A stretch of 64,000 bases of DNA from an uncultured Gammaproteobacteria bacterium (GCA_964571255.1 CAZNAA010000001.1:620666-684665), one strand, 5' to 3'. Shown: positions 8,496 to 41,665, counted from the stretch's first letter. The notes: generated from the letters alone by a model not told the origin. Made by a program: numbers and translations.

Positions 8496-9210
8496 AACCT
8501 ATTACAAACAATCCCCTCGGATCAATAAACGGGTTCTGTTTCGTTTTTGTGGAATCTGTTTATGCTTACTTGGCGTTGTGGTAACAGGATATCTTTTTTT
8601 TCCCGTTATTTCCTGGAAGCTATACTTAGAACCAGCTTTTGCTTCTCAACAAATCACAAGTCCTGTTCCTCAAACAAACTTAGTAACGGCCAGTACCTGG
8701 CAAAGTCTTTTACAGTCAAATCAAATTGGAATAAACTTTAACGACCCAAAAAACTGGTTTCCAACTGCGTCTTTTGGCTCAAGTACCAAATCAAGTGTTG
8801 CCGAATACACTATTTCAATCCCAAAAATTAACATTTCCCAAGCGAGTGTCTCAACAATAGATGTGGATTTAGACAGGCATCTTATTAATTACCAAGGCAC
8901 CGCAACTCCTCCAAATAAAGGAAATGCTGTCATATTTGGCCACTCTACTCTCCCTCAGCTCTATAACCCCAAAGATTACAAGACTATTTTTGCTAACGCT
9001 CATACCTTAAAAAATGGAGACACGATTACCGTTCATTTAGACAAGATTGACTATACCTATAAGATTTTCTCTATCACCGTTGTTAGTCCTGAAGATACTT
9101 CCGCTTTAACTCAGAATTTTGATGATAGTTACCTAACGATTATTACCTGTACTCCTCCAGGAACGATTTGGAAGAGACTCATTATTAAATCAAAACTGGA
9201 AAAAATCTAA
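8488..9210 (+). CDS. Sortase family transpeptidase (membrane-anchored)
   Basis: N-terminal TM; conserved His (NAVIFGHSTL), TLxTC-like catalytic Cys motif (LTIITCTPPG), downstream Arg; overlaps upstream gene by 8 nt. Confidence 0.8.
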   Translation: MNKTYYKQSPRINKRVLFRFCGICLCLLGVVVTGYLFFPVISWKLYLEPAFASQQITSPVPQTNLVTASTWQSLLQSNQIGINFNDPKNWFPTASFGSSTKSSVAEYTISIPKINISQASVSTIDVDLDRHLINYQGTATPPNKGNAVIFGHSTLPQLYNPKDYKTIFANAHTLKNGDTITVHLDKIDYTYKIFSITVVSPEDTSALTQNFDDSYLTIITCTPPGTIWKRLIIKSKLEKI

Positions 9211-18634: not shown

Positions 18635-19810
18635 TTACCAGGAAGGTAAAAATTCTTTAATATTTGATTGATCTACCTTTACACTTTCTACTTTTCCCTC
18701 AACAATCATTCGTGCAACCTTTCGACACATGCCCTCAATCAGTCTTTCTAAACTTCGAATGCCTGAGTCAAATCCTAAAGGCCTAATAAGAAGCGGCCAA
18801 ACAGAATCATCCACTTGTAACTGAGGTTCTGATAATCCTGTTCCTAATCGCACTCTATTAAACAGATATTGTTTCGCAATGGTTATTTTCTCTTGATCTG
18901 TATAGGAGGGCATCTGGATGATCTCTAAACGGTCTAGAACTGCGGTTGAGATGTTTTTGGTATTATTTGCCGTTGCGATAAACAACACGTTTGAGAGATT
19001 TACTGGATAGTCAATATAATGATCGGTAAAAGCTGCATTTTGCTCAGGGTCTAATAACTCAATGAGAACTCCCATAATATCAGCCCGAGCATTATCAGCA
19101 ACTCTATCTAATTCATCAAGAAGAATCACAGGATTTTTTGTTCCTGCAACACTAAGTTTTTTAATAACGCTCCCTGGTTCTGCATCAGGATACGCTTTTG
19201 ACTGTCCTCTGAGGACTCGTGAATCTGCCATACCTCCAAATGGAATACGAGCAAACTTTCGCCCTAAGGCTTCAGCTATAGAAATTGCCAGGGTTGTTTT
19301 TCCTGTTCCAGCCAATCCAACAAGGCACAAAATAGGAGCATGAGAAATCGTGTCTTTTTTACCAGATTTGAGATTTAAAATAATCGTTGCTAAGTATTCC
19401 AAAATTCTATCTTTAATAGGGTCTAATCCATAATGATTCTTATCAAGAACTTGCTTGGCTTTAATCAAATCCAGTAAGTCCTCAGATTGCGTATTCCAAG
19501 GAAGTCCTAGTACCCAGGTAATGTATGAAGAAGTATTTTCGTACTCTAAAATATAGTTAGTACTCATATACCCACTACTGGCACGAACCAAAGCAAGGCG
19601 TGATACGCGCTCTAAAAGAGTTTGCTTTAAATCCGAAGGAAGCGTAGTTGATTCAACTCGCTCTCCTAATTTTCGAATTTGATCATTTGATTCTATCTTA
19701 TCATTTCCGTTTCCATTCGTTTGAATTTGTGGCACGTCAGTAGTACTCGTTGGAGAGGGGTCTAAAGGAGTTTGATGTGGCGCTTGAAACAGCGGATGAG
19801 TTGGATCCAT
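18635..19810 (-). CDS. Lon-like AAA+ ATPase lacking LAN N-domain and S16 protease domain
   Basis: LGLPWN, LDKNHYGLDPIKDRILEYLA, Walker A LCLVGLAGTGKTT, Walker B VILLDELD, LDPEQNAAFTDHYIDYPVNLSNVLFIATAN; ends right after AAA+ alpha-subdomain; start ATG 19810 (MDPTHPL) because ATG 19831 overlaps the -10. Confidence 0.75.
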   Translation of the reverse strand: MDPTHPLFQAPHQTPLDPSPTSTTDVPQIQTNGNGNDKIESNDQIRKLGERVESTTLPSDLKQTLLERVSRLALVRASSGYMSTNYILEYENTSSYITWVLGLPWNTQSEDLLDLIKAKQVLDKNHYGLDPIKDRILEYLATIILNLKSGKKDTISHAPILCLVGLAGTGKTTLAISIAEALGRKFARIPFGGMADSRVLRGQSKAYPDAEPGSVIKKLSVAGTKNPVILLDELDRVADNARADIMGVLIELLDPEQNAAFTDHYIDYPVNLSNVLFIATANNTKNISTAVLDRLEIIQMPSYTDQEKITIAKQYLFNRVRLGTGLSEPQLQVDDSVWPLLIRPLGFDSGIRSLERLIEGMCRKVARMIVEGKVESVKVDQSNIKEFLPSW

Positions 19811-19830
19811 ATATGTAATACTATACAGCA

Positions 19831-19858
19831 TTTATAAAACCGGAGCAAAATGAGTCAA
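19831..19858 (-). promoter_or_regulatory. Promoter TTGACT(19853-19858)-N16-TATAAA(19831-19836) for lon-like/rnj operon
   Basis: near-consensus hexamers on minus strand. Confidence 0.35.
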
Positions 19859-26617: not shown

Positions 26618-26754
26618 GAAGAGACCCGAGCATTCAATCCGTACATGAAAGAATTGACAATAAAAGTCCTATAGTTTACAATTGGAACATGGCAAAGATA
26701 GCTTTCTTAAGCTATTTAGTCGTTCTTTAACAGTAATACATGGGTTTTTCATAT

Positions 26755-26805
26755 CTAGCTTAGGAGATAAGGTTATACCTTTTATAGCTTTTTTTCCTAA
26801 GCTAG
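26755..26805. repeat. 11-bp perfect inverted repeat CTAGCTTAGGA / TCCTAAGCTAG with 29-nt AT-rich spacer at the AT-rich/GC-rich boundary
   Basis: arms 26755-26765 and 26795-26805. Confidence 0.6.
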
Positions 26806-26820
26806 TAGCAAGGGAATCAA

Positions 26821-26842
26821 TACGCTACCACCTGGTAGCGTA
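26821..26842. promoter_or_regulatory. 22-bp perfect palindrome TACGCTACCA-CC-TGGTAGCGTA 25 nt upstream of ATG 26868 (operator-like or 5'-UTR stem)
   Basis: 10-bp arms, GC-rich like the downstream gene; followed by AGGAGG RBS. Confidence 0.55.
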
Positions 26843-26867
26843 TCTCATCCAGCAGGAGGTAGTCACC

Positions 26868-27467
26868 ATGGCGATCAACGGAAAGTTTGTTGCGTCGGCG
26901 ACGCTACTCGTTAGCCTCTTTCTCTTAGCATTACTAGGCGGAAAGAGCGGAGTGGGGTCAGAACACTACATCCCGCGTCATCAGAGTATTATTCTCATCG
27001 CTACACCCGCACTTGAGCGGGGAGAGTGCTTCGAACTTCGTTTGGAGATCGAGGAAACCTACTCCCCGACCGAACGGATGTATCACACACGAACCTTACT
27101 CACGAAGGAGGATTGGTGCAAGCTGATTGGCGCGGAGCCAGAGCTTGTCTACCAGGTCGGCAAAAATATCCGATCCGCCTCTTCTCAAATATCGATAGAT
27201 GGAGGAACGGTACGGATCGGAGGGCTTCTGAGGCCATTTGGTGCTCAGGAGCACTACAGCGTCACATACCAAGTGACGATAGATACCAGCTGGAAGTGGC
27301 AAGAGAGCTTCGGGTCCAAGGGGCCCGAATACACTCTTTTCCGCATGGGCGATAATCAAAACTCGCCCCCGGCAGATTACATACTCGAAATCACGGAACC
27401 TGAAGGAGTCTCCATTCTCACTGATGAGGGGAGGTATTCCAACTTCGTGATGTCCAAGTCACGCTGA
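26868..27467 (+). CDS. Hypothetical secreted protein encoded in a GC-rich islet (~199 aa, N-terminal signal/TM)
   Basis: AGGAGG 8 nt upstream; MAINGKFVASATLLVSLFLLALLGGKSG...; local GC ~55% versus ~38% flanks. Confidence 0.55.
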   Translation: MAINGKFVASATLLVSLFLLALLGGKSGVGSEHYIPRHQSIILIATPALERGECFELRLEIEETYSPTERMYHTRTLLTKEDWCKLIGAEPELVYQVGKNIRSASSQISIDGGTVRIGGLLRPFGAQEHYSVTYQVTIDTSWKWQESFGSKGPEYTLFRMGDNQNSPPADYILEITEPEGVSILTDEGRYSNFVMSKSR

Positions 27468-27657: not shown

Positions 27658-30033
27658 TTATTTAGAAATCGTATAGATAATTTCTTCATTCTCAACTGAA
27701 AATACTACCTTACTTCCCCGTTGCAGCATATCTTGCAGTTTCATTTTCGCTAAAGCATCCTCAATCGTATCCTGAATATAGCGTCGTAAAGGCCTGGCTC
27801 CAAACTGATTATTAGCTCCATGTGTAGCAATAAAGCCCAAGATGCTTTGATCAAAGCTAACCAAAAAATCTTGTTCTTCAAGGTATTTTGTTAACGATGC
27901 AAGCATGAGCTTGGTCACTTCTATTTGTTCCTGCGCAGAAAGAGGTTCAAACATGATGACATCATCAAATCGATTCAAAAGTTCAGGAGTATACAACCCT
28001 TGTGTTTGCAAAAATTCTAACAGATCTGTTTTCAACTGTTCTGCTTGAGTTTCTGCTTGAATTTTTTCTCGAATAAATTCTGCCCCTGCATTTGAAGTTG
28101 CAATAATGATTGCATTTTTAAAGGACACAACTCTTCCTAACGCATCTGTTAGTCTTCCATCGTCAAGTACCGGAAGGAGAAGATTTAAAACATCTCTGTC
28201 TGCTTTTTCAAATTCATCAAGAAGAATAAGACTAGAGGGATGATCCCGAACAGCTTCTGTTAATTCTCCTCTTCCATTATTTCCTCCAGGCATGCCAATC
28301 AGTCTCGCAACTCCTTCTGCTCCTCTAAATTCACTCATATCAAATCGAAGCATTTTCCCTTCTCCTCCAAAATAGACTGAGGCTAAGGCTTTAGCTGTTT
28401 CTGTTTTTCCAACTCCGGTTGGACCTAGAAACAGAAACGAAATAGGTTTTTTAGGAGGTTCTATATTTGACCGAATTCGCCTCACTGCCTCGGCAATTGC
28501 CACAGTTGCGTGCTGTTGACCAATAATTCTCTCTTGTAACTTGTCTTCAAGGGACAAAAGAGTTTTCTTTTCTTCTTGGCTTGGAGGAAGAGCCGTCGCA
28601 ACCCCTTTTTGTCCAACCGTTTGAGCAACATCTGATTCTTCTAAGAATTGTACTTGTCTTGTCTGGTGGACCCGTTGCCTGACATATCGGATACTGTCCT
28701 CAAGAAGGTTTATCGCACTTCCCGGAAGAACAACGTCTTGGGCATAAGAATCAGAGAGGCGAATTGATTCACGTAAGGCTTGATAACGGATTTTTACTCC
28801 AGTTCGTTTCTCTAAGTCTTCAACTTTTTCACATAAGATATGGAGTGCCGTTTGTTTATCAGGCTCTGAAATAGTAATAACCGTAAAAGCCTCACGAGCT
28901 GGACTATTTTCTAAGTATTGCTTATAGGCAGCTTGGGTCATAGTTGCAATAACAGGAAGTTTCCCATTTTTTAAATAAGGAAGGAGCGCTTCGGCAATAT
29001 TTACCTGGAAAGTAGGATTTCCCAGAATGTTTTCTAAGGCTGGAATATACAAAAGTACGTTATAAGAATGAGACACTTCTTGAATAATGGTTTGTAGCCT
29101 CGTTTCCAAATCAGCTCTATTAGCTGCTCCTGCCAAAAGTTGTCCTACCATTAACTCCAAAATTCGTCTGAAATTTAACTTTTCGGTAAGATTTCCAGAT
29201 TCTGTATCAAAAGCAAAGGCTTTTATGATACTCTCCTTCCCTACACCAATATCTCCAACCAGTAACACGTTATTATTCTCTGGTTTCTGAAGCGTTCCAA
29301 TTAACTCTTCATATTTTGCCTCTCTACTAAATAAATGAGGCCTTTGATAAGAGGAATAATAAAATTCTTGCGTATACTTTTGCGTTTCTGGGGTCCAGCC
29401 AGAAACTACTGCGTCTCCTATTCCTCTGCCACTGACCCGTACTCGAAACGGTTGTGGGTTTTCTTCTTCTGGATGAGCCATTCGAACCCAAGAGAGAAGA
29501 ACAAGGAGATCCTCTCGTTTTAAGTGGAGATTAAAAAGGGTTTGGCTTTGTTCCTCAATAAGCAACAAATAAGAAGCTAATAAATCCATTCGTAAAATGT
29601 ATTTACCCTTCACTTCTGTTGCTAATTCATAGGCAGTACGTAATAGTTGTTGCTGATCCACAAATATCTGAGGAATCATCTGTTTCTCAACTCCAAACCG
29701 GGTGAGAAAGAACTGCCCTTCAACCGTATTTAAAATATTGATTATTCCCCTTGTTCCTTTTTGATAGGCCAAAAGAGCATCAAGCGTACAACACTGGGTT
29801 AAATCAGAAGGATTTTCTGGAATCGTTTTATCAGGCATCATATGGCCTATTTTTCCAAAAACAAACAGCTCAGACGTAATTAAAAATTGAGTTAAAAAAA
29901 GCAAATAAGGAAAAAGGACTTTAGTCTCCCAAGAAAGATAGGCCAAATAGCTTAGTATTAAGACGCCTACTCCTCGAACAATAAGAAATTGCCAGGAAGT
30001 ATAGACTTGATAAATATGGGCAAAATATTTCAT
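27658..30033 (-). CDS. Hsp100/Clp-family ATPase paralog: N-terminal 2-TM anchor + Clp_N-like repeats, degenerate AAA D1 (Walker A GDIGVGKES, Walker B lost), intact D2, no M-domain
   Basis: TMs FLIVRGVGVLILSYLAYLSW / VLFPYLLFLTQFLITSELFVFG; D2 [55 protein letters not shown]; start overlaps upstream gene stop (ATGA). Confidence 0.85.
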   Translation of the reverse strand: MKYFAHIYQVYTSWQFLIVRGVGVLILSYLAYLSWETKVLFPYLLFLTQFLITSELFVFGKIGHMMPDKTIPENPSDLTQCCTLDALLAYQKGTRGIINILNTVEGQFFLTRFGVEKQMIPQIFVDQQQLLRTAYELATEVKGKYILRMDLLASYLLLIEEQSQTLFNLHLKREDLLVLLSWVRMAHPEEENPQPFRVRVSGRGIGDAVVSGWTPETQKYTQEFYYSSYQRPHLFSREAKYEELIGTLQKPENNNVLLVGDIGVGKESIIKAFAFDTESGNLTEKLNFRRILELMVGQLLAGAANRADLETRLQTIIQEVSHSYNVLLYIPALENILGNPTFQVNIAEALLPYLKNGKLPVIATMTQAAYKQYLENSPAREAFTVITISEPDKQTALHILCEKVEDLEKRTGVKIRYQALRESIRLSDSYAQDVVLPGSAINLLEDSIRYVRQRVHQTRQVQFLEESDVAQTVGQKGVATALPPSQEEKKTLLSLEDKLQERIIGQQHATVAIAEAVRRIRSNIEPPKKPISFLFLGPTGVGKTETAKALASVYFGGEGKMLRFDMSEFRGAEGVARLIGMPGGNNGRGELTEAVRDHPSSLILLDEFEKADRDVLNLLLPVLDDGRLTDALGRVVSFKNAIIIATSNAGAEFIREKIQAETQAEQLKTDLLEFLQTQGLYTPELLNRFDDVIMFEPLSAQEQIEVTKLMLASLTKYLEEQDFLVSFDQSILGFIATHGANNQFGARPLRRYIQDTIEDALAKMKLQDMLQRGSKVVFSVENEEIIYTISK

Positions 30034-30377
30034 ATGGCAGATACGATACTCATGATAACAAGAATGGTAACGACAAAAGGAAATCCAATAATAAAACTCA
30101 AAAGGAGTAGCTCAATAAAAAGAATCGGAAGCATCAGAATAAGCCACGTTAAAATAATACATAGTTTCACAAAAATTCCCATCACAATAGAGAATCTCAC
30201 AAGTCCTTCTCGATATTCATTTTTAATTGGTTGAAAAAAGGTTTGGAGAAGCATTTTTATGGAGAACATATGCATAAATGCCTTATTAAATGAGAGAAAA
30301 AAAAGTACTGCTTCTCGAGGTACTTCAATAAACCAAAAATGCAGAAAATAAAGAGGCAAAAGGGAGATATGTGACAT
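30030..30377 (-). CDS. Small polytopic membrane protein (115 aa, ~3 TM)
   Basis: hydrophobic ORF embedded in operon. Confidence 0.5.
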   Translation of the reverse strand: MSHISLLPLYFLHFWFIEVPREAVLFFLSFNKAFMHMFSIKMLLQTFFQPIKNEYREGLVRFSIVMGIFVKLCIILTWLILMLPILFIELLLLSFIIGFPFVVTILVIMSIVSAI

Positions 30378-30415
30378 GCTTTCAGTCTAAAGGGTTTTTA
30401 ATGGGTTTGCAATTT

Positions 30416-33280
30416 CTATGCAGCTGCAGAAAGTGTCGCACCCGTTGCTGGAGGTTTCGGAGCATCAGGCTGTGACTGATTAAACTCTTGCGTCGGTGGT
30501 AAATTCCACCCAGAAGAAGAAGCAGCAGGAGGAGGAGGTACAGCTGATACAGGGGATGAACTCATAACTGGTGCACCTTCAGTTATTGGAGGCAGCGATG
30601 ATACAGGAGAAGGGGTAGAAGCGAGTAGAGACGGAGGTACCTCTACTGGAGGCATTTGAGATGTGTCAGCAAGATTCTTTTCACTCATTGGATCAATTTC
30701 ATCTAGTTTTGCATCAGGAGTTGGAGGGATTTCTTCTCCTTGAACAGGAGAGGCATCCGGTTTTGCACCACCTGCACTAGCAGAGCCTTTAGCAAAGGTG
30801 AATTCTGATTTTGTAGCGTCGTATCCAACTAAAATAACATCAGGTGAGGCAAATGTTTTCCCAATAAGCTTGACTGCGATGGGATTTTCAATAGAGGTTT
30901 GAATCAACCGTCGTAACGGACGAGCTCCATAGACTGGATCATATCCTTCCTTGGCAAGCTCCATGAGAGCAGATTGGGTAATTTGGAGATCAAGTCCTTG
31001 CTCTTGAAGCAGATGGGCTGTTTTGGCAATATTATTTTTGGCAATTGAGGCCATATCAGCTTGTGCTAGAGGCTTAAAGACAACTACTTCATCAAATCGA
31101 TTCAAAAGCTCTGGCTTGAAAAACTTATGCAACTCATCAGAAAGAAGTGAATTAAGGTCTGCAAAGTCTTTCTGATACTCCTCCTCAGTTGCATGAGGTT
31201 TGCTCATTTGCTGCTGGATCAAAGCACTTCCGATATTTGAAGTAGCAATAATAATGGTGTTTTTGAAAGAAATAGTATTTCCTTTGTTATCCGTAAGTCT
31301 CCCATCCTCAAGCAGTTGCAGTAAAATATTAAAGACATCAGGATGGGCTTTTTCAATCTCATCAAGAAGCACAATGGAGTACGGTTTTCGTCTTACTGCT
31401 TCTGTTAATTGACCACCCTCTTCATAGCCAACATAGCCTGGAGGAGCTCCGATAAGCTTGGCTACTTCATGTTTTTCCATATACTCACTCATATCAAGTC
31501 GAACAAGTGCGTCTTCTTTGCCAAAAAGAATTTCAGCTAGGGTCTTGGCCAACTCTGTTTTTCCAACTCCAGTAGGGCCGAGGAAAATAAATGAAGCAAT
31601 CGGACGAGTAGGACTTGCGAGTCCAATTCTTCCTCTTTGAACTGCCTCTGTTACTGATTGGACAGCTTCTTCTTGCCCAATAAGACGTTTGTGGATAAGC
31701 TCAGCCAAGTGAAGTAGTTTTTCTCCTTCATCTTCAGTCAATTTAGTAATAGGAATCCCTGTCCAACTACTTACAACCTTTTCAATATCTGATTTGACTA
31801 CTGCTGTATCTGTTTTTTTACCTGTTGAGTGTTGCAGCTTAACATCTGCTGCAGCCTCATCCATCAAATCCACTGCTTTATCTGGCAAAAATCTCTCTCC
31901 AATATATTTTTTTGACAAATGGACTGCGTCTTTTAAGGTTTCATCTGAAAAAGTCACACTATGAAACTTCTCATATTTTGGCTTAATGATTTGAAGCATC
32001 TCAACTGCAACTTCCTCAGTTGGTTCGTCAACTATAATTGGCTGAAAGCGTCTTTCAAAGGCTTTATCCTTTTCAAAATGCTTCCGATACTCACTGGTTG
32101 TTGTCGTTCCAATAAGCTGCAACTGTCCCCGAGCTAGATAGGGTTTAACAATATTTGAAGCATCCAGTGCTCCTCCCTCATCTCCTGCTCCAATAAGAGT
32201 ATGAATTTCATCAATGAAAAGAATGATCTCTCCACTCGCCTCAATGGTTTCTTTAATAACATCTCGAAGTCTCTCCTCAAACTCTCCCCGATGAGATGCT
32301 CCGGCCACAAGAGAGGCAAGATCCATTTGAATAATTCTTTTACCTGAGAGATCTTTTGGAGCAGTTCCTCCCACAATTGATTGAGCAAGGCCTTCAACAA
32401 TAGCCGTCTTTCCAACTCCTGCCTCTCCAATGATAATAGGATTATTTTTCGATCTTCTGAGTAAAATATGCACCATTCGCTCAATTTCTTTATCTCGTCC
32501 TGCAATCGGATCTAATTTTCCGTCTTTGGCTTGTTGAGTGAGATCAATTCCATATTTCTCCAAAACTGATTTTTTTCCCGTGTGATAGGTGGGATTTTTA
32601 GCAAGAGACTGAACAAGCTTATCTTTTTGAATTCCCTTCTCACTGAGTGCTTTATTCATCGATTCCAAAGAGGCAAGAGCTACGAGGAGATCTTCAGGTG
32701 AGATAAAGGCAACTCCTCGTCCTTTCACGTCCTTATATGCAGCATCAAAAACTGATTTGGTTTGATCACTCAGTTTTGGCTGCCCTGAAAAATTCCCTGG
32801 AATTTGTTTCGCTTGGATTTCTTTAGAAAGGGCTCCAACATCTACTGATTCTTTTTGCAAAAGAGCAAAAATTTCTTGATCAAAAAGAATTCCATATAAA
32901 AGCAAATCTGGCTCAATCTTTTCTTTTTTCAATCTTGTTGCTTCTTCTTGAGCATGGGTCAAGGCTTGGGAAGATCTCGCATCTAGATGAGAAAGAACTG
33001 ACATGTCTTGCTTGGTTGCAGGATCTAAGGAAGAAGACGTTGAGGCAACAGGTGTTTGTCCTATAGGAGCTTCTGGATCAAGAGGAGTTGGATCATTAGG
33101 AACAGGAGATACAGGCGTACTCGTTGCACCTGAAGAAGCTAATGGAGCTTGAGGTACAGGAGTAGCTACTGGCTGAGCAGATGGTGTTTGTCCGTCTTCT
33201 GGTTTATGAAATAAATTACCAAACATAGTTCCATTATGGACATAAGTTTTGTCAAAAAGCAACTTATAACCTGTCTTCAC
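30416..33280 (-). CDS. ClpA/ClpC-type Hsp100 ATPase (two Clp_N repeats, canonical D1 and D2, no long M-domain) with Pro/Ser/Thr-rich N- and C-terminal extensions
   Basis: D1 [32 protein letters not shown]; D2 [56 protein letters not shown]; 954 aa; overlaps upstream gene by 17 nt. Confidence 0.9.
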
Positions 33281-36200
33281 TTACAGGAGCTTTTTCCTCT
33301 GTTTTACTTGGTGGAATCTCTTCTTTTATCTCCATGTGTTGCACCTTCATCTCAGGCTTTTTCTCGTCACGTCTGGCAGGAAGTTTTGATTCTTCCTCTT
33401 GCTCTTTTTTATCGACATCCTCAAGTACATCTTTGGCTGCTTCTTGTTTGGCCTTCAAATAGCCAACAATTTCTGTTTGTGAGAAGCCTCCAATAAGAAG
33501 GAACGGCAGAATACCTGATACTTTTTTCATTCCTTCCTGTCTTTTTTCATTGACTGGAGAGGAAAGAAGGTTAATGGCCTCAGTAATCTCTTCAATATCT
33601 TGACTGATAAATTGAGCCTTTGGTACTTTTTGTCCTTGTCTAATTGGTTCATCGAGATTTTCATAGTTTTCCTTCCAGATTTTTTTGACTGCTTCATAAT
33701 CCTCAAGTGAGACGTTTTGAACTCTATTCACAACGGGGAAGGAGACATCTTTTTTAATCAGTGAGGTATTGGGTTTTTGCTGGCGTTGTTTGACCAACAA
33801 ACTATAAATAAATCCAGCTAACTGATCACCCTTGTCTTTGGCCTTTACTAGTTCCTCTTTGACTTTCTCAACGGTAACTACAGGCTGTACAGGTGTAACC
33901 GTTTGGATAAGTTGAGTAGCAAAAGGTGTTTGTTGTTGAGCCTCAAGACGGATTTGTTGGGTGAGATTAAAGACTGTTTCTTTACTCGCTTCTCCTCTTC
34001 CCTCAATCATATCCAAAAGTTGCGTGGCAAGTTTGTTGCCTTTTACTTGCTCTTCTTTAATAAAGGTAAGAAGTACTGTGTAGGACTCTTTCTCTTTTTG
34101 ATCAGTAATAAGCTCTGGTTTAAGAAGTTTCTCAACAATCTCTGTAACTTTTTGTGACTGAACTGGAGCAGGAGTAGATTGGACAGGAGTAGTTTGTTTT
34201 TGAACAAGTGTAGAAAGAACCGATTGGAGAGTTGTACTTCCTCGTACTTCTTTTATCGTTTGAGTTACTTGCTTAATCAGATCTTGCGTAATATTTTGAG
34301 GTGATTGGAGAATAGGGAGAAGTTGAGTAGCTAACTGATCACCTTTTTGGGCATCTTTGACAATCGTTTCTCGAATAGTCATAGCTGTTTCTTTTTCTTT
34401 TTGAGGAAGCAAATCAGGTTGAGCTAGGTGTTGGATAAAGGTAGCAACATGATTTTCTGTAATTTCCGTTGTCCCTTGTTGCAAATACGTATTGGTAATG
34501 TAGTTTACAACTGATTGATCTGTTTTATTAACTTGGCTCATTTGCTGAGTGAGAGAATTCATAACAGATGGAGAAAGAGATTGCGTTTGGGTAATAAGTG
34601 AGAGCAGTTGACGAGCTAGTGGAGTACCCAACACTGCTTCTTTCGTAATCGTTTCTTTCAAAACTTCTATATTTTGCTTGTCAGAAATGTTGGTAATCAC
34701 CTCAGGATGTGCGAGTTGGTTAATAATAGTAGTTAAGGCTTGCTCTGTTGAAACAGCTTGGGTACTACTCGACTGATCAGTTTTGGAGGAGATATATTGA
34801 TTAAGAGTTGTGGCAAAAGAGTTTCCCGCAACAGATTGCTGGCTTACGGTCTCTTTGACTTTCTCATAGACTGTTTTTTCGGTTATTTGAGTAACTCGCT
34901 CAGGTGTTGCAATGTTATTTAAGATATTAATTAACACTGGTCTGTCGTCTGAAACAGTAACAGGAGTTGAAACAATAGCACTGGATGCTTGCAATACGAC
35001 ATTGGCAAATTGATTCCCTCTTTGACTTTCATTTCTTAACGTCTCTCGAATCCTTTCAAATTGTTGTCTTTCAACAGGAGTTCTAGCCAGTTGAGGATTT
35101 GAGATTTGTTGGAGATTTTGAACAGACACAGGAGTACTCGTTTGCGTTGTTGTTGTCGTTTTTATTTGATTAGTATCGAACATGGCAATATCTCGCATAG
35201 TAGGAATTGCTACTTGGATTTGTTTGAGAACTTCATTTAACCTACTCACCTCTGTACTTCGAATAACAGGAGTTGATTGCTGCTGTTGCACTGAAACCGT
35301 TTGTCTTAATGGCCTTGCTTGAGGCAGTGACTTGGCCTGAGAGGCTGGAGTAACCGATTGAACGATAGGTTCTGAGAAAGGAAGTTGCAGCTTTCGTCCA
35401 AACGGCAAACTGAGAGCCTTTCCAGTTGGGAAGGAAGGAGGAGTAGGTGGAGGTGGTGGAGATAGTGGTTGACGATTAAGCATAGTATTTGAGAGAGCAA
35501 GAAACTGCTTCATTCCTGGAGCATCATTTAAAGCAAGACTAAATAGATAATCAAGAAAAATACGAAGCAAGATAAAGGGCAAAATCATAACAGCCCACAG
35601 CATCATGAGACAAATAGTGTAGAGAGCAAACGTTTCAGGAAGATTCACGCTACTGGCAAGACCAATAGCTTGTCTTGGTCCTCCTAGTAAAATATTCACT
35701 GCTGTTTGATAGACAGGAGTTGCCGTTTTCGTAACAATAGTTCCTGTTGGTTGATAAGAAAAAAGCGGAATGGTTGATTGCCACAAAGAGACAAGTCCTG
35801 CAAGGAGTACGGCAAAAAGAGGGCCATATAATACCCACCGGAAAAACTCCCCTATCCAAATTTTAGCGGTATTTCGAATCGGCCAGTAGAAAAGAAGCAG
35901 AGGGAAAATGGGAGAGATAATAATAAAAAACCACAATACTATTTTTCGAATAATAAGCATGGCAGCCATGGCATAATAGGTAACTGCAGTAAGTCTGGTT
36001 AAAAGAAGCGTCATGAACGCTGACTCATCAGTAAAGGAGTCTACTCGCTTGTACCCGATAAAGTCTTCATATTTAAATGCAATATTTAGCAAATTTTCTT
36101 GACTAATTGTTTGACGCACTGCAGCAGTGGCGGGATCTGGATTTCGCAGGAAAAACCCTTGGGTAATATCAGTTAGTTGATAAATGATCTGGACCATTCC

Positions 36201-36584
36201 AAATGAAAAGGTGACTAGAAGTAAAATTCCCACAAAGCGGGGAATAAATTTTTGCAAGCTAATATTACTTCCCCTAGTTATGAGCATCAAAAACGCTGTT
36301 GAGAGAATAAAGAGAGCAAAGAATGCATAGACAAGATTTCTGATAATAATCCAGAAAGGAATGAGAGGGTTTCCTTCGTTGCCTAACTGCACCCATTTGT
36401 AGTTTTCCAACGTCCAATCCAAAAACGCTCCAGCTCGTGCAGCTGTTTTTCCAACAAAGGTTACTTCATTATCAACAACCCACGTTCCAACTAAGTCAGC
36501 TGCAAAAATATGAGAGGGAACAAAGAACAAAAGAATACTAAAAATGGTAAGAAAAAGAAGAAAGTTGGGCAGCAAGCGTTTCAT
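33264..36584 (-). CDS. Large membrane protein (1106 aa): signal peptide + ~7-8 TM N-terminal module, poly-Pro linker, ~600-aa Gln/Thr/Ser-rich region of ~6 degenerate tandem repeats, acidic/Lys tail
   Basis: repeat signatures ETIVKDAQKGDQLATQLLPIL / ETITKEAVLGTPLARQLLSLI / EEQVKGNKLATQLLDMI / KAKDKGDQLAGFIYSLL / RNESQRGNQFANVVLQ / QQSVAGNSFATTLNQYI, each preceded by (H/Q)PE(V/L)IT-like segment. Confidence 0.8.
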   Translation of the reverse strand: MKRLLPNFLLFLTIFSILLFFVPSHIFAADLVGTWVVDNEVTFVGKTAARAGAFLDWTLENYKWVQLGNEGNPLIPFWIIIRNLVYAFFALFILSTAFLMLITRGSNISLQKFIPRFVGILLLVTFSFGMVQIIYQLTDITQGFFLRNPDPATAAVRQTISQENLLNIAFKYEDFIGYKRVDSFTDESAFMTLLLTRLTAVTYYAMAAMLIIRKIVLWFFIIISPIFPLLLFYWPIRNTAKIWIGEFFRWVLYGPLFAVLLAGLVSLWQSTIPLFSYQPTGTIVTKTATPVYQTAVNILLGGPRQAIGLASSVNLPETFALYTICLMMLWAVMILPFILLRIFLDYLFSLALNDAPGMKQFLALSNTMLNRQPLSPPPPPTPPSFPTGKALSLPFGRKLQLPFSEPIVQSVTPASQAKSLPQARPLRQTVSVQQQQSTPVIRSTEVSRLNEVLKQIQVAIPTMRDIAMFDTNQIKTTTTTQTSTPVSVQNLQQISNPQLARTPVERQQFERIRETLRNESQRGNQFANVVLQASSAIVSTPVTVSDDRPVLINILNNIATPERVTQITEKTVYEKVKETVSQQSVAGNSFATTLNQYISSKTDQSSSTQAVSTEQALTTIINQLAHPEVITNISDKQNIEVLKETITKEAVLGTPLARQLLSLITQTQSLSPSVMNSLTQQMSQVNKTDQSVVNYITNTYLQQGTTEITENHVATFIQHLAQPDLLPQKEKETAMTIRETIVKDAQKGDQLATQLLPILQSPQNITQDLIKQVTQTIKEVRGSTTLQSVLSTLVQKQTTPVQSTPAPVQSQKVTEIVEKLLKPELITDQKEKESYTVLLTFIKEEQVKGNKLATQLLDMIEGRGEASKETVFNLTQQIRLEAQQQTPFATQLIQTVTPVQPVVTVEKVKEELVKAKDKGDQLAGFIYSLLVKQRQQKPNTSLIKKDVSFPVVNRVQNVSLEDYEAVKKIWKENYENLDEPIRQGQKVPKAQFISQDIEEITEAINLLSSPVNEKRQEGMKKVSGILPFLLIGGFSQTEIVGYLKAKQEAAKDVLEDVDKKEQEEESKLPARRDEKKPEMKVQHMEIKEEIPPSKTEEKAPVSEDRL

Positions 36585-36702
36585 ACTATAAATTCATAAA
36601 AAGAGTAGACAGAATTACCTATCTCTCCTCTTGTATAGTAGCATATTTACTGACTCATATTGGAATAGATATTTAACAAATTGTGGATGAAAAAGAGATT
36701 CA

Positions 36703-36733
36703 GGTATCCCGCTGCAGTTAGCAGCGGAATACC
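36703..36733 (-). terminator. 13-bp stem hairpin GGTATcCCGCTGC-AGTTA-GCAGCGGaATACC followed on minus strand by UCUCUUUUUC
   Basis: seen directly; sits between GC-islet ORF and the Clp operon start. Confidence 0.5.
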
Positions 36734-36904
36734 ATACTCTTGCGATGATAGTGTGAAGGAGTAGTCTACGGTAGCCTGCATCTCCCACCCAATGGAATCA
36801 TGCCCCCAGCGTTTACCCACCCTGAGGCGCGTAGTCGCTTTGCAACCGCCTGCTCGTCTTCTTCTTTGGTACGGGCTTGACATGATCTCCATCCTTTCTT
36901 GTTG

Positions 36905-37276
36905 TTAACCATTTATCTGCTCGTCGATCATCGAGAGCAGCAGTTCGCGGACATTGTCCTCCGCTAACAACCGTCGGAGAGCAAGCCTCGTGATAGCACC
37001 CTTGAAGGCCGAGAGAAAGATCTCGATGATAGCGTGTTCGTGTTGGGAAGCAAAATTGTGTTTTTTTTGCTTCGCCAAATCCTGCCACCTCGGATAGTGG
37101 GGGCGTTCGTGGGGGAAGAACTTAACAGTCTTTTCCCCCCAGAAACGCCACCTGGGCCTGCGATGATCTACCCTATTGAACTTATCCCACGTTTCTATTG
37201 GAAGTAAGTCCACAAGTGCTACAACAAACGCTGTAGTATTGTTTTTGAGGTCGATTTGAGAATCTAGGATTTCCAT
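36905..37276 (-). CDS. Hypothetical protein in second GC-rich islet (~123 aa)
   Basis: GGAGG upstream of ATG 37276 (MEILDSQIDLK...); GC ~50%; overlapping alternative-frame ORFs judged spurious. Confidence 0.45.
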   Translation of the reverse strand: MEILDSQIDLKNNTTAFVVALVDLLPIETWDKFNRVDHRRPRWRFWGEKTVKFFPHERPHYPRWQDLAKQKKHNFASQHEHAIIEIFLSAFKGAITRLALRRLLAEDNVRELLLSMIDEQING

Positions 37277-37524
37277 TTTTCCCTCCTGCCCTCCTACCAC
37301 TGGTACATCCAGTAGTATTGAAGCAAGTAAAAAGAAAAGAAATTAATTCCTTCCCTCTTTCCTTGCTTCAAAAGATAACAGAGATTACGTTTCACAACTA
37401 TTAATGTGCAAGAGAATTAAAATATTCTAGGTTCTACTAGATTTCTGCATTCAGAAATAAGTTGAATCTAAAAACTGAGAAGATTATAAGATAAAAATAG
37501 AGAGATTGCAAACTATGGGGTTGA

Positions 37525-38406
37525 TTAGAACCAATTTTTCTTTTTGGAATCGGTACTATCAAATTCTTCCAGTAATTCTTTTTGTCTTTTCGTTACACTT
37601 TTTGGAATAGCCACTTTAATCTTGACGTAGTGATCTCCATTCCCGCCTCCTCTGATTCTTGGCATTCCTTTCCCAGAAAGTCTAATAAGCATTCCAGGTT
37701 GTGTTCCTGAGGGAATTTTTATCGTTACTTTTCCTTGAACTGTTTCAACAGGTAATTGAGTTCCGAGTACAGCTTGAGGAAAAGAAATCTCTTCTTCTGT
37801 AATAATGTCTGCTCCTTCTCTTTGATATCTGTTGTGAGGCTGTACATCAATAAGAACGTCATAGTTTTCAAATCGAATACGAGATCCTCGGTCTACCCCT
37901 GCTGGGATTTTTATCTTTTGTTTTTTCCCATCAATCGTTACTTCTTTTTCTACTCCTTTTATAGCATCATCAAAAGTAATGGTTAAGGAGTAAACAGGAC
38001 GACGTTGGGCTCTGGAGAAAGGTCCGCCGGCTCCTCCAAAAAATTGTTCGAAAATTTCAAAGGGATCTGAAAATCCGCCAGAATCAAATCCTTGGTTTTG
38101 AGAAGAAGAATAAGTATACGTAAATGGCCCTCCTCCTTGGAAAGGTCCACCAGGTCCTGGTCCCCCTGCTCCTGGACCTCCTTGATCAAAAGCAGCTGAA
38201 CCATATTGATCGTATAATTGTTTTTTCTGAGGATCTGAGAGAACTTCGTATGCCTTAGTTATTTCTTTAAATTTAGTTTCTGCTTCCTTAGTTTTATTTC
38301 TATCTGGGTGATACTGCAGTGCAAGCTTTCGATATGACTTTTTTATTTCATCAGGTGGAGATGATTTGGTAATTCCTAGTAATTGATAATAATCAGTTTG
38401 TGCCAT
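37525..38406 (-). CDS. dnaJ: DnaJ-family co-chaperone (J domain + G/F region + C-terminal domains; no Zn-finger CxxCxGxG repeats)
   Basis: YYQLLGITKSSPPDEIKKSYRKLALQYHPDRN. Confidence 0.9.
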   Translation of the reverse strand: MAQTDYYQLLGITKSSPPDEIKKSYRKLALQYHPDRNKTKEAETKFKEITKAYEVLSDPQKKQLYDQYGSAAFDQGGPGAGGPGPGGPFQGGGPFTYTYSSSQNQGFDSGGFSDPFEIFEQFFGGAGGPFSRAQRRPVYSLTITFDDAIKGVEKEVTIDGKKQKIKIPAGVDRGSRIRFENYDVLIDVQPHNRYQREGADIITEEEISFPQAVLGTQLPVETVQGKVTIKIPSGTQPGMLIRLSGKGMPRIRGGGNGDHYVKIKVAIPKSVTKRQKELLEEFDSTDSKKKNWF

Positions 38407-38425
38407 AGGTCTTTAGATACGAAAG

Positions 38426-38443
38426 AAGCGCGTTTCCGCGCTT
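38426..38443. other. Intergenic hairpin AAGCGCG-TTTC-CGCGCTT between dnaK and dnaJ
   Basis: 7-bp GC stem; minus-strand RNA loop GAAA; T-run on plus side, weak U-run on minus side. Confidence 0.4.
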
Positions 38444-38467
38444 TTGTATAGCTTTTTGAGCTAATAG

Positions 38468-40381
38468 TTATTCTACCACTTCTCCTTCTTTTGCTTTTCC
38501 TTTATCTTCTCCCGGCTCTTTTTTCTCATCACCATCAGTTTTCCCATCTTCCTCAACTGCTTCAATTTCTGGTTCCTCAGTTGGATTAGGAGTAGATTGC
38601 ATATGTTGTCCAATTTTTTGCATAGATTCAGCTAACTCTTTGGATTTACTCTCAATCTCTTCTTTGCTTCCTGAATCAAGTACGCTTCTGAGACTACTGA
38701 TTTTTTCCTCAACTTCAGTTTTTATTTCATCAGTTATTTTCCCTTCAGCATCTTTAAGGGATTTTTCTGCAGTAAAGATGAGTGAGTCAGCCATGTTTTT
38801 AGCCTCAACTTGAGATTTTTTCTCTTCGTCTTCTTTTGCATGCAACTCTGCTTCTTTAGTCATTTTTTCAACCTCTTCTTTGGATAACCCAGTTGAGCCT
38901 TGAATCTTGATACTTTGCTCTTTGCCACTAGCTTTGTCTTTAGCCGTAACGTGCAAGATTCCATTGGCATCAATATCAAAAGTCACCTCAACTTGTGGCA
39001 TACCTCGTGGAGCTGGTGGAATTCCGTCTAGGATAAATCTTCCCAAGGATTTATTATCAGCTGCCATAGATCTCTCCCCCTGTAATACATTAATTTCAAC
39101 TTGTGTTTGGTTATCAGCAGCAGTTGAGAAAACTTGGGATTTACTCGTTGGAATAGTCGTATTTCGATTAATAAGAGGAGTTGAAACAGCACCAAGCGTC
39201 TCAATACCCAGAGTTAATGGAGTAACGTCTAAAAGAAGTACATCTTTAACATCTCCTGCCAATACTCCTCCTTGAATGGCTGCACCCATGGCAACGACTT
39301 CATCTGGATTTACTGACTTATTGGATTCTTTCCCAAAGTATTTAGAAACTGTTTCGATAATCTTTGGCATTCGAGTCATTCCTCCAACCAAAACGACTTC
39401 ATCAACCTCCGATGCTTTCATCCCAGCGTCTTTAAGAGCTAATTCTACTGGTTTAAGCGTTTTTTGAACTAAATCATCAACAAGTTGCTCAAGCTTGGAA
39501 CGAGTCAAAGTCAAAGTCAAATGTAGTGGGCCATTCTCTCCTTGGGTGATGAATGGTTGATTAATGGATGCCTCTTGTGAAGAAGATAGTTCAATTTTGG
39601 CTTTTTCAGCAGATTCTTTGAGACGTTGGAGTGCTTGAGGATCTTTTCTCAAATCAACGTTGTTTTCCTTTTTAAATTCATCGGCAATGTGATCAATAAT
39701 GACTTGATCAAAATCATCTCCTCCCAAATGAGTATCACCATTCGTCGACTTTACCTCAGTTACGCCTTCTCCTAACTCAAGAATAGAAATATCAAACGTC
39801 CCTCCGCCCAAGTCATATACGGCAATCGTATGAGAGTTTTTCTTATCTAAGCCATAGGCTAAAGCTGCTGCAGTTGGTTCGTTAATAATTCGTTTTACAT
39901 CAAGTCCAGCAATCTCTCCAGCTTGTTTGGTTGCTTGGCGTTGACTGTCATCAAAATAGGCGGGAACGGTGATAACTGCTTCTGTTACTTTCTCACCCAG
40001 ATAGGACTCTGCATCGGCTTTGATTTTTTGCAAAATCATGGCTGAGATTTCTTGTGGAGTAAAGGTTTTCCCATCAACCTCAACTACTGCCATTCCATCT
40101 CGTCCTTCTTTAACAGTGTATGGAAGCCATTTCAAATCGCGTTGTACGGATTCGTCTTTAAACTTTTTTCCCATGAGACGTTTGACTGAGAAAATGGTTT
40201 GTTTTGGCTTTAACACCATTTGGCGCTTAGCAACGTCTCCAACAACGTGGGAGATTGGGTCAACCACTGAAGGGATAACGTTTCTGCCTTCAGCTGAGTG
40301 GATAACATTTGCCATTCCACCTTGCATTACAGCAACGCATGAGTTTGTTGTTCCTAAATCAATTCCAATTATTTTACCCAT
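38468..40381 (-). CDS. dnaK: Chaperone DnaK (Hsp70)
   Basis: [31 protein letters not shown], acidic C-terminal tail. Confidence 0.97.
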
Positions 40382-40443
40382 ATATTTTTTGTGAGTCTTT
40401 TTAAGATCTCAGAGAAAAAAATTTATTTTTCTTCTCTCAAATC

Positions 40444-40956
40444 TTACTTTCCTCCAACTGCTACTTCAGCAGGACGTAGTAATTTTCCGTAGAGCAAGTA
40501 TCCAGGACGTCTTTCTTCAATCACTATATTAGCATCTCCGTCAATAATTTCAACTGCCTCCATGAGGGATGGATCAAAAACTTTTCCAACTGTTTCTATC
40601 TTCTCAACCCCTTCACCTTTTAGTGCGTCTTTGTAGACAGTAATGACTAATTCAAGAGTCTTATCAGTATTATGCTTTGAAGTCATCTCCAGCATATCTA
40701 GAGTGGGAAGTAATCGTTGCAGAAGAGACAGATTGGCACTTTTAATCCACTCTGACTTTTCTTCTCGTACTCGCTTTTCAAGGTTCTGATAATCAGCAAG
40801 AATTCTCTTGTACTGATTTGTCATTTCTTCTAGTTGTATTTCGCAACTGTCATGTATGTCTTCTTCAAGAACAGGCATTTCCTCCACGTCTTGTTGTTCC
40901 TCTTTCACTTGATCTTGCTTCTTCATAATTTTACCACTGTTTTGCCACGTCTTCAA
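40444..40956 (-). CDS. grpE: Nucleotide exchange factor GrpE
   Basis: coiled-coil N-half and C-terminal beta domain; operon position. Confidence 0.85.
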   Translation of the reverse strand: MKTWQNSGKIMKKQDQVKEEQQDVEEMPVLEEDIHDSCEIQLEEMTNQYKRILADYQNLEKRVREEKSEWIKSANLSLLQRLLPTLDMLEMTSKHNTDKTLELVITVYKDALKGEGVEKIETVGKVFDPSLMEAVEIIDGDANIVIEERRPGYLLYGKLLRPAEVAVGGK

Positions 40957-41665
40957 TCAAATCTCCAAAATATCTTACTGCAGGAACAATAGTTGTATAG
41001 TTAAGGCGTTGTGGTCCAATAACTCCAATTTCTCCATGTTCCTGTCCTGGTACGTTGTACTCAGTAAAAACTAACCCATATGGTCCTTTTAACGCTCCTC
41101 CTAATTCATCTCCCATAACAATGTGAATTTCTTCATCAACGTCACTGTTTGCAAATAGTACTTTGAAATATTCATACTCATCCAAGGCTTGTAAAAGTGT
41201 TTTAGTGATATCGATATCAAAAAACTCTGGCATATCTAAAATATGTGCATAGCCTGAGCAATAGATTTGTCCACTTCCTGTTGTAGCAATGGCAACGGCT
41301 CCCGTTTTTTGAGCTAATGACTTAGTAACTTCCCTCAGAAACCTATCGACTTGAGACCGATAATCCCATACATTTTCTTTTAAGGCTACTTCCTCAACCG
41401 TTGATAACTGCTTTACTTTCATTAACTCTTTGACATACAGTCTCATGCCTTCAGCGGTTGGGATTCTTCCGGCTGAGGTGTGAGGTTTTTCTAAATAGCC
41501 AAGAGTTGTTAGATGAACCATTTCGTTTCGAATGGTTGCAGGAGAAGCACTTAAATTATATTTCTTCTCAATGGTTTCTGATCCAACTGGTAAAGCAGTG
41601 TCAATGTATTCCTCAATAATACTTTTCAGAATATCGATTTGACGCTGAGTAAGGTTATGAATCAT
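40931..41665 (-). CDS. hrcA: Heat-inducible transcription repressor HrcA (short, 244 aa)
   Basis: N-terminal winged HTH (TQRQIDILKSIIEEYIDTALPVGSETI), operon hrcA-grpE-dnaK-dnaJ. Confidence 0.85.
   Translation of the reverse strand: MIHNLTQRQIDILKSIIEEYIDTALPVGSETIEKKYNLSASPATIRNEMVHLTTLGYLEKPHTSAGRIPTAEGMRLYVKELMKVKQLSTVEEVALKENVWDYRSQVDRFLREVTKSLAQKTGAVAIATTGSGQIYCSGYAHILDMPEFFDIDITKTLLQALDEYEYFKVLFANSDVDEEIHIVMGDELGGALKGPYGLVFTEYNVPGQEHGEIGVIGPQRLNYTTIVPAVRYFGDLIEDVAKQW

Follow-up and report, generated by a model that had tools for sequence, protein, structure and literature searches.

Two Hsp100 gene modules in tandem behind the dnaK operon of a Patescibacteria-type genome

What would a bacterial cell do at its membrane with two Hsp100 ATPases encoded side by side behind the dnaK operon? 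This question is raised by a 64-kb stretch of DNA (GCA_964571255.1, CAZNAA010000001.1:620666-684665; "the window" below means this whole stretch), a housekeeping segment of a genome of the Patescibacteria or Candidate Phyla Radiation (CPR) type, with a GC content of ~39%. Four genes on its minus strand encode BIG, a 1106-aa polytopic membrane protein that joins an N-terminal domain of VirB6 fold to a long tail of repeats (33264..36584), CLPC-like, a soluble two-ring Hsp100 (30416..33226), SMALL, a 115-aa membrane protein (30030..30377), and ANCH, a 791-aa anchored Hsp100 paralogue (27658..30033). A sequence-only reading of this DNA had taken the four genes for one system. Gene order in related loci divides them into two modules, also on the minus strand: BIG with CLPC-like (module A, 36584-30416) and SMALL with ANCH (module B, 30377-27658). 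Our preferred reading, which we hold tentatively and with somewhat less than even confidence, is that these are two conserved, membrane-associated Hsp100 modules of Patescibacteria type in tandem. The first would be an unfoldase docked on a VirB6-fold platform and the second a membrane-bound ATPase pair.

The four co-directional open reading frames (ORFs) were verified at 36584-33264, 33280/33226-30416, 30377-30030 and 30033-27658, as was the ATGA at 30033-30030 in which the stop of SMALL and the start of ANCH overlap by 4 nt. A second overlap, read earlier at 33264-33280, needs a GTG start for CLPC-like at 33280. Every orthologue aligns from the ATG at 33226, and we therefore place the start there, which leaves a 37-nt spacer after BIG. 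CLPC-like and SMALL are separated by 38 nt.

The VirB6-fold protein and the Hsp100 beside it

The membrane domain of BIG (residues 1-372, 35469..36584, minus strand) is predicted to have a signal peptide and five transmembrane (TM) helices in an N-out/C-in topology, from hydropathy, the positive-inside rule and the helices of the structural model. It matches the VirB6 fold, the polytopic bundle of helices known from R388 TrwI. The corresponding Pfam family, TrbL (PF04610), matches the BIG of the window with E=1.3e-4 and 8 of 25 family members with E 1e-4 to 4e-6, at 22-24 bits against a gathering cut-off of 25.9. The tail that follows is ~730 aa long and contains the long repeat region that had been noticed from the sequence. 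Six degenerate copies of a ~65-aa repeat, with the pattern …P-E-x-I…K-E-T…G-x-x-L-A-x-x-L-L, span ~460 aa (residues 478-937, 33774..35153, minus strand). Self-BLAST of the tail finds no repeats, and the copies were recovered by motif anchoring and a hidden Markov model (HMM). The repeat and tail have no match in Pfam, NCBIfam or PDB. Orthologues of BIG range from 754 to 2154 aa and lie directly upstream of the Hsp100 gene in all 15 loci with room for it.

The repeat is shared with the Hsp100. The HMM, built only from the six BIG copies of the window, was searched against the 4214 ORFs of all fetched loci. It matches BIG orthologues, with 2-17 copies each, and the C-terminal extensions of Hsp100 orthologues, where 5-7 copies follow the D2-small domain (E 1e-20 to 1e-31; L083, L095, L121, L131, L148 and L168 are among these loci). 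Its only other matches are two small genes adjacent to the cluster. Since an Hsp100 must be cytoplasmic, the repeat should be a cytoplasmic module, which supports the C-in topology of BIG. The BIG tail is probably cytoplasmic, as a docking or adaptor module common with the Hsp100, and the earlier suggestion that the repeat protein is itself exported to the surface is probably not right. Because the repeat of the BIG tail sits on the Hsp100 C-terminus in other lineages, we infer that it is a docking link. At the level of sequence, the coupling between BIG and this Hsp100 is well supported.

Look-ups centred on BIG gave three loci, two of them with an Hsp100 of the same type (SHR in the first pore loop, no M-domain insert) within ~3 kb. 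One has the same gene order, and in the other, from Daviesbacteria, the Hsp100 lies upstream of a pilin array and a VirB6-like gene. The third holds a BIG copy without Clp, among insertion sequence elements.

CLPC-like had been described as a canonical ClpA/C-type unfoldase. Like ANCH, it has the tandem AAA (D1), AAA_2 (D2) and ClpB_D2-small domains that define class I Hsp100/Clp proteins. Its Pfam matches are AAA (E 5e-22), AAA_lid_9, AAA_2 (E 3e-71) and D2-small (E 5e-21). Both Walker A/B pairs are intact, and the D2 pore loop is the canonical GYVGY. The M-domain, however, is missing: in the PDB alignment, residues 487-492 bridge positions 399-519 of T. thermophilus ClpB, and the spacing at this site is equally short in all complete orthologues. 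The site of the ClpP-docking [IVL]G[FL] loop reads QMSKPHA, compared with RFAGFGG in S. aureus ClpC, and no [I/L/V]-G-[F/L] tripeptide occurs there in any CLPC-like orthologue or in the ANCH family. The D1 pore loop is SHR and not KYR, with His in place of a Tyr that, to our knowledge, is present in all characterised Hsp100s. M-domain loss, ClpP-loop loss and SHR recur unchanged in every one of the 18 non-redundant orthologues with full sequence over these regions, and in three added later. The protein is flanked by Pro/Ser-rich tails, 81 aa long at its N-terminal end and 136 aa at its C-terminal end.

NCBIfam scores of CLPC-like are below the cut-offs for ClpB (TIGR03346, 895 against 1232), ClpA (TIGR02639, 733 against 993) and ClpV (TIGR03345, 701 against 885). 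Together with the missing M-domain this rejects ClpB, and with the missing ClpP-docking loop it rejects ClpA/ClpC. ClpV/TssH is rejected by its score and by the absence of any type VI secretion system (T6SS) family from the window and the related loci. The word canonical is thus best dropped. The M-domain, a long coiled coil inserted into the small subdomain of D1, is needed for the coupling of ClpB to DnaK, and the [IVL]G[FL] loop, which follows sensor-1 of D2, for docking to ClpP. CLPC-like lacks both and so should act on its own; it would be neither part of a protease nor a DnaK-coupled disaggregase of the ClpB type.

A possible client is suggested by relatives. In many of them a ~100-aa two-TM protein with matches to PF18895 (T4SS_pilin; T4SS, type IV secretion system) is encoded immediately upstream of BIG, and pilin arrays adjoin the Hsp100 in one locus (L171). 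We propose that BIG is an inner-membrane platform of VirB6 fold with its repeat tail in the cytoplasm, and CLPC-like an autonomous unfoldase with both ATPase rings intact. The repeats would physically hold the unfoldase hexamer on the platform through its D2 or exit end. Docked in this way, the unfoldase would most likely extract, recycle or feed the VirB2-like pilin, or other membrane or secreted clients. Such a role would be analogous to that of ClpV in servicing the T6SS, or of HSP101 in docking on the PTEX pore.

In the window, the cluster had been placed immediately after dnaJ. It lies ~940 bp away, and ~831 bp of this distance is a lineage-specific insertion between dnaJ and BIG (36694..37524, no strand assigned). 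The insertion is missing in a relative with 86-88% nucleotide identity (L172), where BIG begins ~100 nt after dnaJ, and it occupies the site of the VirB2-like pilin gene in more distant relatives. It is richer in GC and carries an ORF (36905-37300) that gives 131 aa when read from a GTG and 123 aa when read from an ATG, the latter preceded by a good Shine-Dalgarno sequence. The ORF and the spacer have no match in Pfam, NCBIfam or Rfam, and Rfam on the 940-bp spacer returned noise.

The VirB6 fold of BIG and the pilin arrays beside the Hsp100 in L171 would also fit a more conventional arrangement, with BIG (and the pilin in relatives) as the VirB6/VirB2 part of an ordinary VirB4-driven T4SS with its remaining genes at another site, and the Hsp100 as its assembly or disassembly chaperone, a role that ClpV and Francisella ClpB have for the T6SS. 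A 2025 survey reports VirB4-based T4SS across Patescibacteria, with VirB4, VirB3, VirB6 and VirB2-like genes around virB4; VirB6 homologues are scarce and VirB2 arrays abundant in Microgenomatia (PMC12102498). The closest named relatives of BIG, Levybacteria and Daviesbacteria, belong to Microgenomatia. The same survey makes no mention of Clp, AAA or DnaK (PMC12102498). Against this arrangement, no VirB4, VirB3 or VirB8 was found in the related loci of ~20 kb that were examined or in the window, where no VirB4-type family occurs and no VirD4 lies near BIG. Among essentially all window ORFs from 120 aa upwards, Pfam scans detected neither ClpP, VirB4 nor VirD4, and no marker of a T6SS or type VII secretion system. 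They agree with what had been read from the sequence, with one amendment: the VirB6-like partner, BIG, is itself a T4SS-type component. Overall, we regard an ordinary VirB4-driven T4SS as quite unlikely.

The anchored paralogue and its small partner

ANCH belongs to a family of proteins of ~800 aa with 42-49% identity across many Patescibacteria metagenome-assembled genomes, under the names Levybacteria, Saccharimonadales and "Patescibacteria group". A TM hairpin and a helical N-domain are followed by a degenerate D1 (residues ~236-465, 28639..29328, from motif alignment) and an active D2 with its D2-small domain (residues ~529-777, 27703..28449, from Pfam and motif alignment), all on the minus strand. 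Pfam reports AAA_2 (E 2e-45), D2-small (E 9e-18) and AAA_lid_9 (E 3e-7), with D1 only weakly matched, and the protein is below all NCBIfam equivalog cut-offs.

The hairpin (residues 14-62, 29848..29994, minus strand) carries a near-invariant Arg20 and Glu55. Hydropathy shows two hydrophobic segments at the N-terminus, and AlphaFold2 places helices at 14-37 and 41-62 (pLDDT 82-88; overall pLDDT 81). The two N-terminal TM helices had been named beforehand as a point on which the earlier interpretation could fail, and the model predicts them. The eight-helix N-domain after the hairpin has no match in PDB, Pfam or NCBIfam.

The claim of a dead first AAA module in ANCH holds up. Its D1 has GVGKE as Walker A and YIPALE as Walker B, with a family-invariant Pro replacing Asp. 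The dead D1 reads as a trait of the subfamily, because a distant Saccharimonadales member (L002) keeps intact GKT and DE motifs. In D2, the Walker A/B motifs, sensor-1, Arg finger and sensor-2 are intact, and in this subfamily ANCH would hydrolyse ATP only there. The pore loops are AANRA in D1, without Tyr, and GGNNGRGE in D2 (family consensus PGEGxERGE), without any aromatic residue. The pore-loop Tyr is missing in 20 of 20 family members and also in distant Saccharimonadales-type ones, and the D2 loop is deleted in a distant fused member with 31% identity (P0222).

Substrate threading by Hsp100s requires pore-loop tyrosines. With no aromatic pore-loop residue in either ring, ANCH is unlikely to thread substrates, and it makes a poor candidate for the unfoldase once proposed to extract or thread proteins at the membrane. 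It would more likely be a switch or scaffold at the membrane that is driven by ATP, is expressed together with DnaK/DnaJ and acts on membrane-embedded partners.

A contig scan with the ANCH alignment, which used generic patterns (LLDEFEKA, SFLFLGPTG), returned mostly ordinary ClpC of Firmicutes and Actinobacteria and few usable Patescibacteria loci. A metagenome scan with the SMALL motif gave 344 relatives, and synteny was read from 80 loci. SMALL is hydrophobic and conserved by hydropathy and alignment, as expected of the 115-aa membrane protein described earlier. It has an invariant motif, F-x-P-x-K-N-E-Y-R-x-G-L-V, and an invariant Glu in its hydrophobic C-terminal half, and it has no family in Pfam or NCBIfam and no PDB match. 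A public gene model of SMALL (P0161) is only 79 aa long. The 36 residues upstream of this model are conserved across the family, including an invariant FW, Pro20 and Ser29, so the model is probably truncated and the 115-aa ORF is probably the true product.

ANCH follows SMALL directly in 63 of 63 loci with room. In 13 of the 63 the two are fused into one ORF (~820 aa), in which a single TM segment takes the place of the ANCH hairpin, and an independent 840-aa representative carries the same fusion. A profile search with SMALL gave 56 representative clusters, and the sole new domain partner among them was the fused anchored Clp. Because natural fusions of this kind are Rosetta-stone evidence, SMALL and ANCH are expected to form a physical complex at the membrane, present as a single polypeptide in some lineages. 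From these comparisons, the assignment as an obligate pair is well supported.

A matching architecture is found in Southlakia epibionticum, where the gene of a 127-aa hypothetical protein, SEML1_0701, overlaps that of SEML1_0700, an "AAA family ATPase" of 860 aa. In SEML1_0700, AAA_2 covers residues 544-706, D1 is weak and Clp_N is missing (10.1101/2023.05.02.539146). In the transposon data of that study, SEML1_0700 has 41 insertion sites with 118 reads at T0, falling to 10 at T4, and similar counts are seen for rpoB (54 sites, 119 reads) and nusA (12 sites, 27 reads) (10.1101/2023.05.02.539146). Read counts are 14,540 for SEML1_0512, the canonical ClpC with its UVR motif, and 2,972 for ClpP; ClpC thus tolerates insertions (10.1101/2023.05.02.539146). 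These counts suggest that the SEML1_0701/0700 pair is important for fitness. The text of the study does not discuss the pair (10.1101/2023.05.02.539146). SEML1_0512, which lies next to nusA, was also considered as the ANCH orthologue and rejected, as its double Clp_N and UVR/M-domain mark it as a canonical ClpC. In a literature search, no published account was found of an Hsp100 anchored in the membrane or of a VirB6 protein paired with an Hsp100.

Two modules behind the dnaK operon

The relation between the modules was judged from the 21 loci whose sequence extends 9 kb or more upstream of SMALL. BIG and the Hsp100 are upstream of SMALL in 12 of them and not within 10 kb upstream in the other 9, most of which have dnaJ directly before SMALL-ANCH. 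Because of these 9 loci we treat the four genes as two modules and not as one system: the four-gene arrangement is a common juxtaposition of two separable modules. The space between them is often taken up by variable genes, for instance ones encoding secreted proteins or a UvrD helicase.

The tight packing in the window (37 nt, 38 nt and the 4-nt overlap), the same order in the 12 loci and a D2 identity of ~35% between the two Hsp100s could be taken to mean that all four proteins form one complex. In such a machine, the soluble and anchored Hsp100s would make a hetero-hexamer or a stacked pair on the VirB6-like channel. The 9 loci without module A nearby and the variable genes between the modules argue for separate units, and the repeat HMM has no match to ANCH or SMALL. 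We consider a single integrated machine very improbable.

In at least 10 relatives (L097, L107, L109, L113, L118, L121, L127, L148, L159 and L168) the Hsp100 and SMALL are separated by a co-directional gene that varies among loci and encodes a secreted or surface protein (545-1049 aa). The one in L121 (4148-5893) encodes a subtilisin-like protease. These interposed proteins could be clients or merely passengers. The window has no such gene between CLPC-like and SMALL.

Across distant Patescibacteria lineages, both the genes and their order are conserved. Their annotations are limited to "Clp ATP-binding subunit", "AAA family ATPase" or "hypothetical", and no description was found in the literature, in agreement with the view that this is not a named system. 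The hrcA-grpE-dnaK-dnaJ operon is upstream on the same strand, as had been stated (37525..41665, minus strand), and has the same order in most related loci. SMALL-ANCH follows dnaJ directly in many loci, and within a few bases in L130, L119 and L150. A membrane-associated Hsp100 system linked to the dnaK operon therefore remains a fair description.

As for stress co-regulation, only the gene position makes it plausible that the cluster is regulated together with dnaK. Despite the presence of hrcA, no CIRCE element matching TTAGCACTC-N9-GAGTGCTAA with at most 3 mismatches occurs anywhere in the window, although a divergent operator is possible. A promoter scan gave results no better than shuffles.

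This setting would also fit plain proteostasis. In that case the soluble Hsp100 would be a general stress disaggregase, SMALL-ANCH would serve in membrane-protein quality control, and the VirB6-like gene would be a functionally unrelated neighbour retained from an ancestral gene order. The cluster is behind hrcA-grpE-dnaK-dnaJ, as in dnaK-clpB operons, SMALL-ANCH is within a few bases of dnaJ in many loci, and the block is bordered by dnaK on one side and nusA-infB on the other, in a housekeeping region. Other features are harder to reconcile with it. The repeat domain is common only to the tails of BIG and the Hsp100. The Hsp100 lacks the M-domain that ClpB-type disaggregases use with DnaK, ANCH lacks the pore-loop aromatics needed for extraction, and the window has no CIRCE operator. 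We judge plain proteostasis to be unlikely.

Several points weigh against our preferred reading of two membrane-associated Hsp100 modules. The proposed functions of all four proteins are deduced from sequence. The proposed client is missing locally, as neither tblastn nor a pilin HMM finds a VirB2-like pilin gene in the 64-kb window, and a 92%-identical relative likewise lacks one. BIG could serve a VirB4-based T4SS whose genes lie at another site. Only 12 of the 21 loci given above have modules A and B side by side, so that a functional link between them is putative, and in streamlined genomes gene order can persist without functional coupling. The intact D1 motifs of L002 limit the dead first ring to part of the family. 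In the SMALL-ANCH fusions an odd number of TM segments conflicts with the positive-inside rule and does not suit a simple topology that puts KNEYR on the cytoplasmic side (L105, L106, L120, L123, L138, L147, L158, L164 and L165). Finally, the equivalence of SEML1_0700 and ANCH is drawn from domain coordinates and gene arrangement.

A bolder form of the preferred reading sees here a VirB4-independent, Hsp100-powered machine derived from a T4SS core. An unfoldase without M-domain and independent of ClpP, docked by its repeats on a VirB6-fold channel, would dislocate pilin or export proteins, beside a near-essential ANCH-SMALL complex in which threading has given way to a new ATP-driven function at the membrane. 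We consider this form rather unlikely.

The surroundings of the cluster are mostly housekeeping. After ANCH there is a convergent plus-strand ORF (26682-27467), and then nusA and infB; nusA follows in 23 of 27 loci. The window also encodes aminoacyl-tRNA synthetases, FtsK, RNase J, PNPase, NusA, IF-2 and MurB. No tRNA genes and no Rfam families at the gathering threshold were found in its 64 kb.

Three further loci of the window were observed. At 58348-61277 (minus strand), two adjacent genes resemble the two ATP-citrate lyase subunits, one with CoA-ligase and citrate-synthase C-terminal domains and the other with Citrate_bind and ATP-grasp domains. Such a pair would be unusual for a reduced CPR genome. 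The gene at 18635-19831 (minus strand) encodes 398 aa with AAA and Lon_lid domains but without the Lon protease domain. This gene also follows PNPase in relatives L081, L085 and L088, and is a third atypical AAA+ protein of the conserved neighbourhood. At 6123-9210 (plus strand), the gene of a 790-aa protein runs with overlap into a sortase gene. The protein, for which the only match is a weak Baseplate_J-like one (E 9e-5), is probably a sortase-anchored surface protein.

Relation to known Hsp100 and membrane systems

The ultrasmall Patescibacteria account for much of the diversity of bacteria. They live on the surface of host cells to which they attach, and their envelope machines are largely unknown. 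If our reading is true, two new Hsp100 sub-classes would extend the mechanistic repertoire of Clp/Hsp100 proteins. One would be tied by a shared repeat to a VirB6-fold protein, and the other would be membrane-embedded, free of gripping loops and dependent on an obligate small partner. Together they would offer a concrete candidate for energising the handling of pilins or surface proteins in Patescibacteria. Judging from the transposon counts in Southlakia, the anchored pair may be close to essential, which makes it directly testable in the one genetically tractable system.

Both ATPases resemble ClpB/Hsp104 and ClpC/ClpA in having D1, D2 and D2-small domains, with PDB matches to ClpB (1qvr, E 3e-207) and ClpC (6em9, E 2e-202). 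CLPC-like differs from ClpB and ClpC by the lack of the M-domain, and from ClpA and ClpC by the lack of the ClpP-docking loop. In its D1 pore, His replaces Tyr. ANCH differs from ClpB, ClpC and ClpA by its TM hairpin, its dead D1 and its pore loops without aromatic residues. Actinomycetota reportedly have an additional double-ring Clp class, ClpI, which was defined bioinformatically and includes some sub-classes without the ClpP-binding motif. ClpI is said to be soluble and to keep the M-domain and the substrate-unfolding motifs, and its taxon and gene neighbours are unrelated to the present case. Neither module fits a known Clp class, and both are apparently undescribed.

As Hsp100s that work without ClpP coupling and serve a secretion apparatus encoded alongside, ClpV (TssH) and Francisella ClpB come close to what we propose for module A. 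However, there are no T6SS genes here, and the partner is a VirB6-fold membrane protein and not a sheath. PTEX of Plasmodium (HSP101-PTEX150-EXP2) offers another parallel, a ClpB-like unfoldase docked by its D2 end on a membrane pore through which it pushes unfolded proteins, and its HSP101 (6e10) is among the PDB matches of both ATPases. PTEX is eukaryotic and its membrane partners are unrelated, and docking and export are proposals here. The likeness to VirB6/TrbL (TrwI) and VirB2 lies in the N-terminal fold and polytopic topology of BIG and in the two-TM pilin gene upstream in relatives. Here, in contrast to a T4SS, VirB4, VirB3, VirB8 and VirD4 are not nearby, BIG has its ~730-aa tail, the neighbour is an Hsp100, and the pilin gene is missing.

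For module B the parallels come from other membrane-bound ATPases. FtsH, FtsHi/Ycf2, Pex1-Pex6/Pex15, Msp1 and Bcs1 share with ANCH an N-terminal TM anchor and an AAA+ ring at the membrane. Further points in common with the ANCH-SMALL pair are an ATPase tier or subunit that is inactive and a small membrane protein as dedicated partner. All of these except Bcs1 grip their substrates with aromatic pore loops, whereas ANCH has none, and they belong to other AAA+ clades, while ANCH is a derivative of Hsp100.

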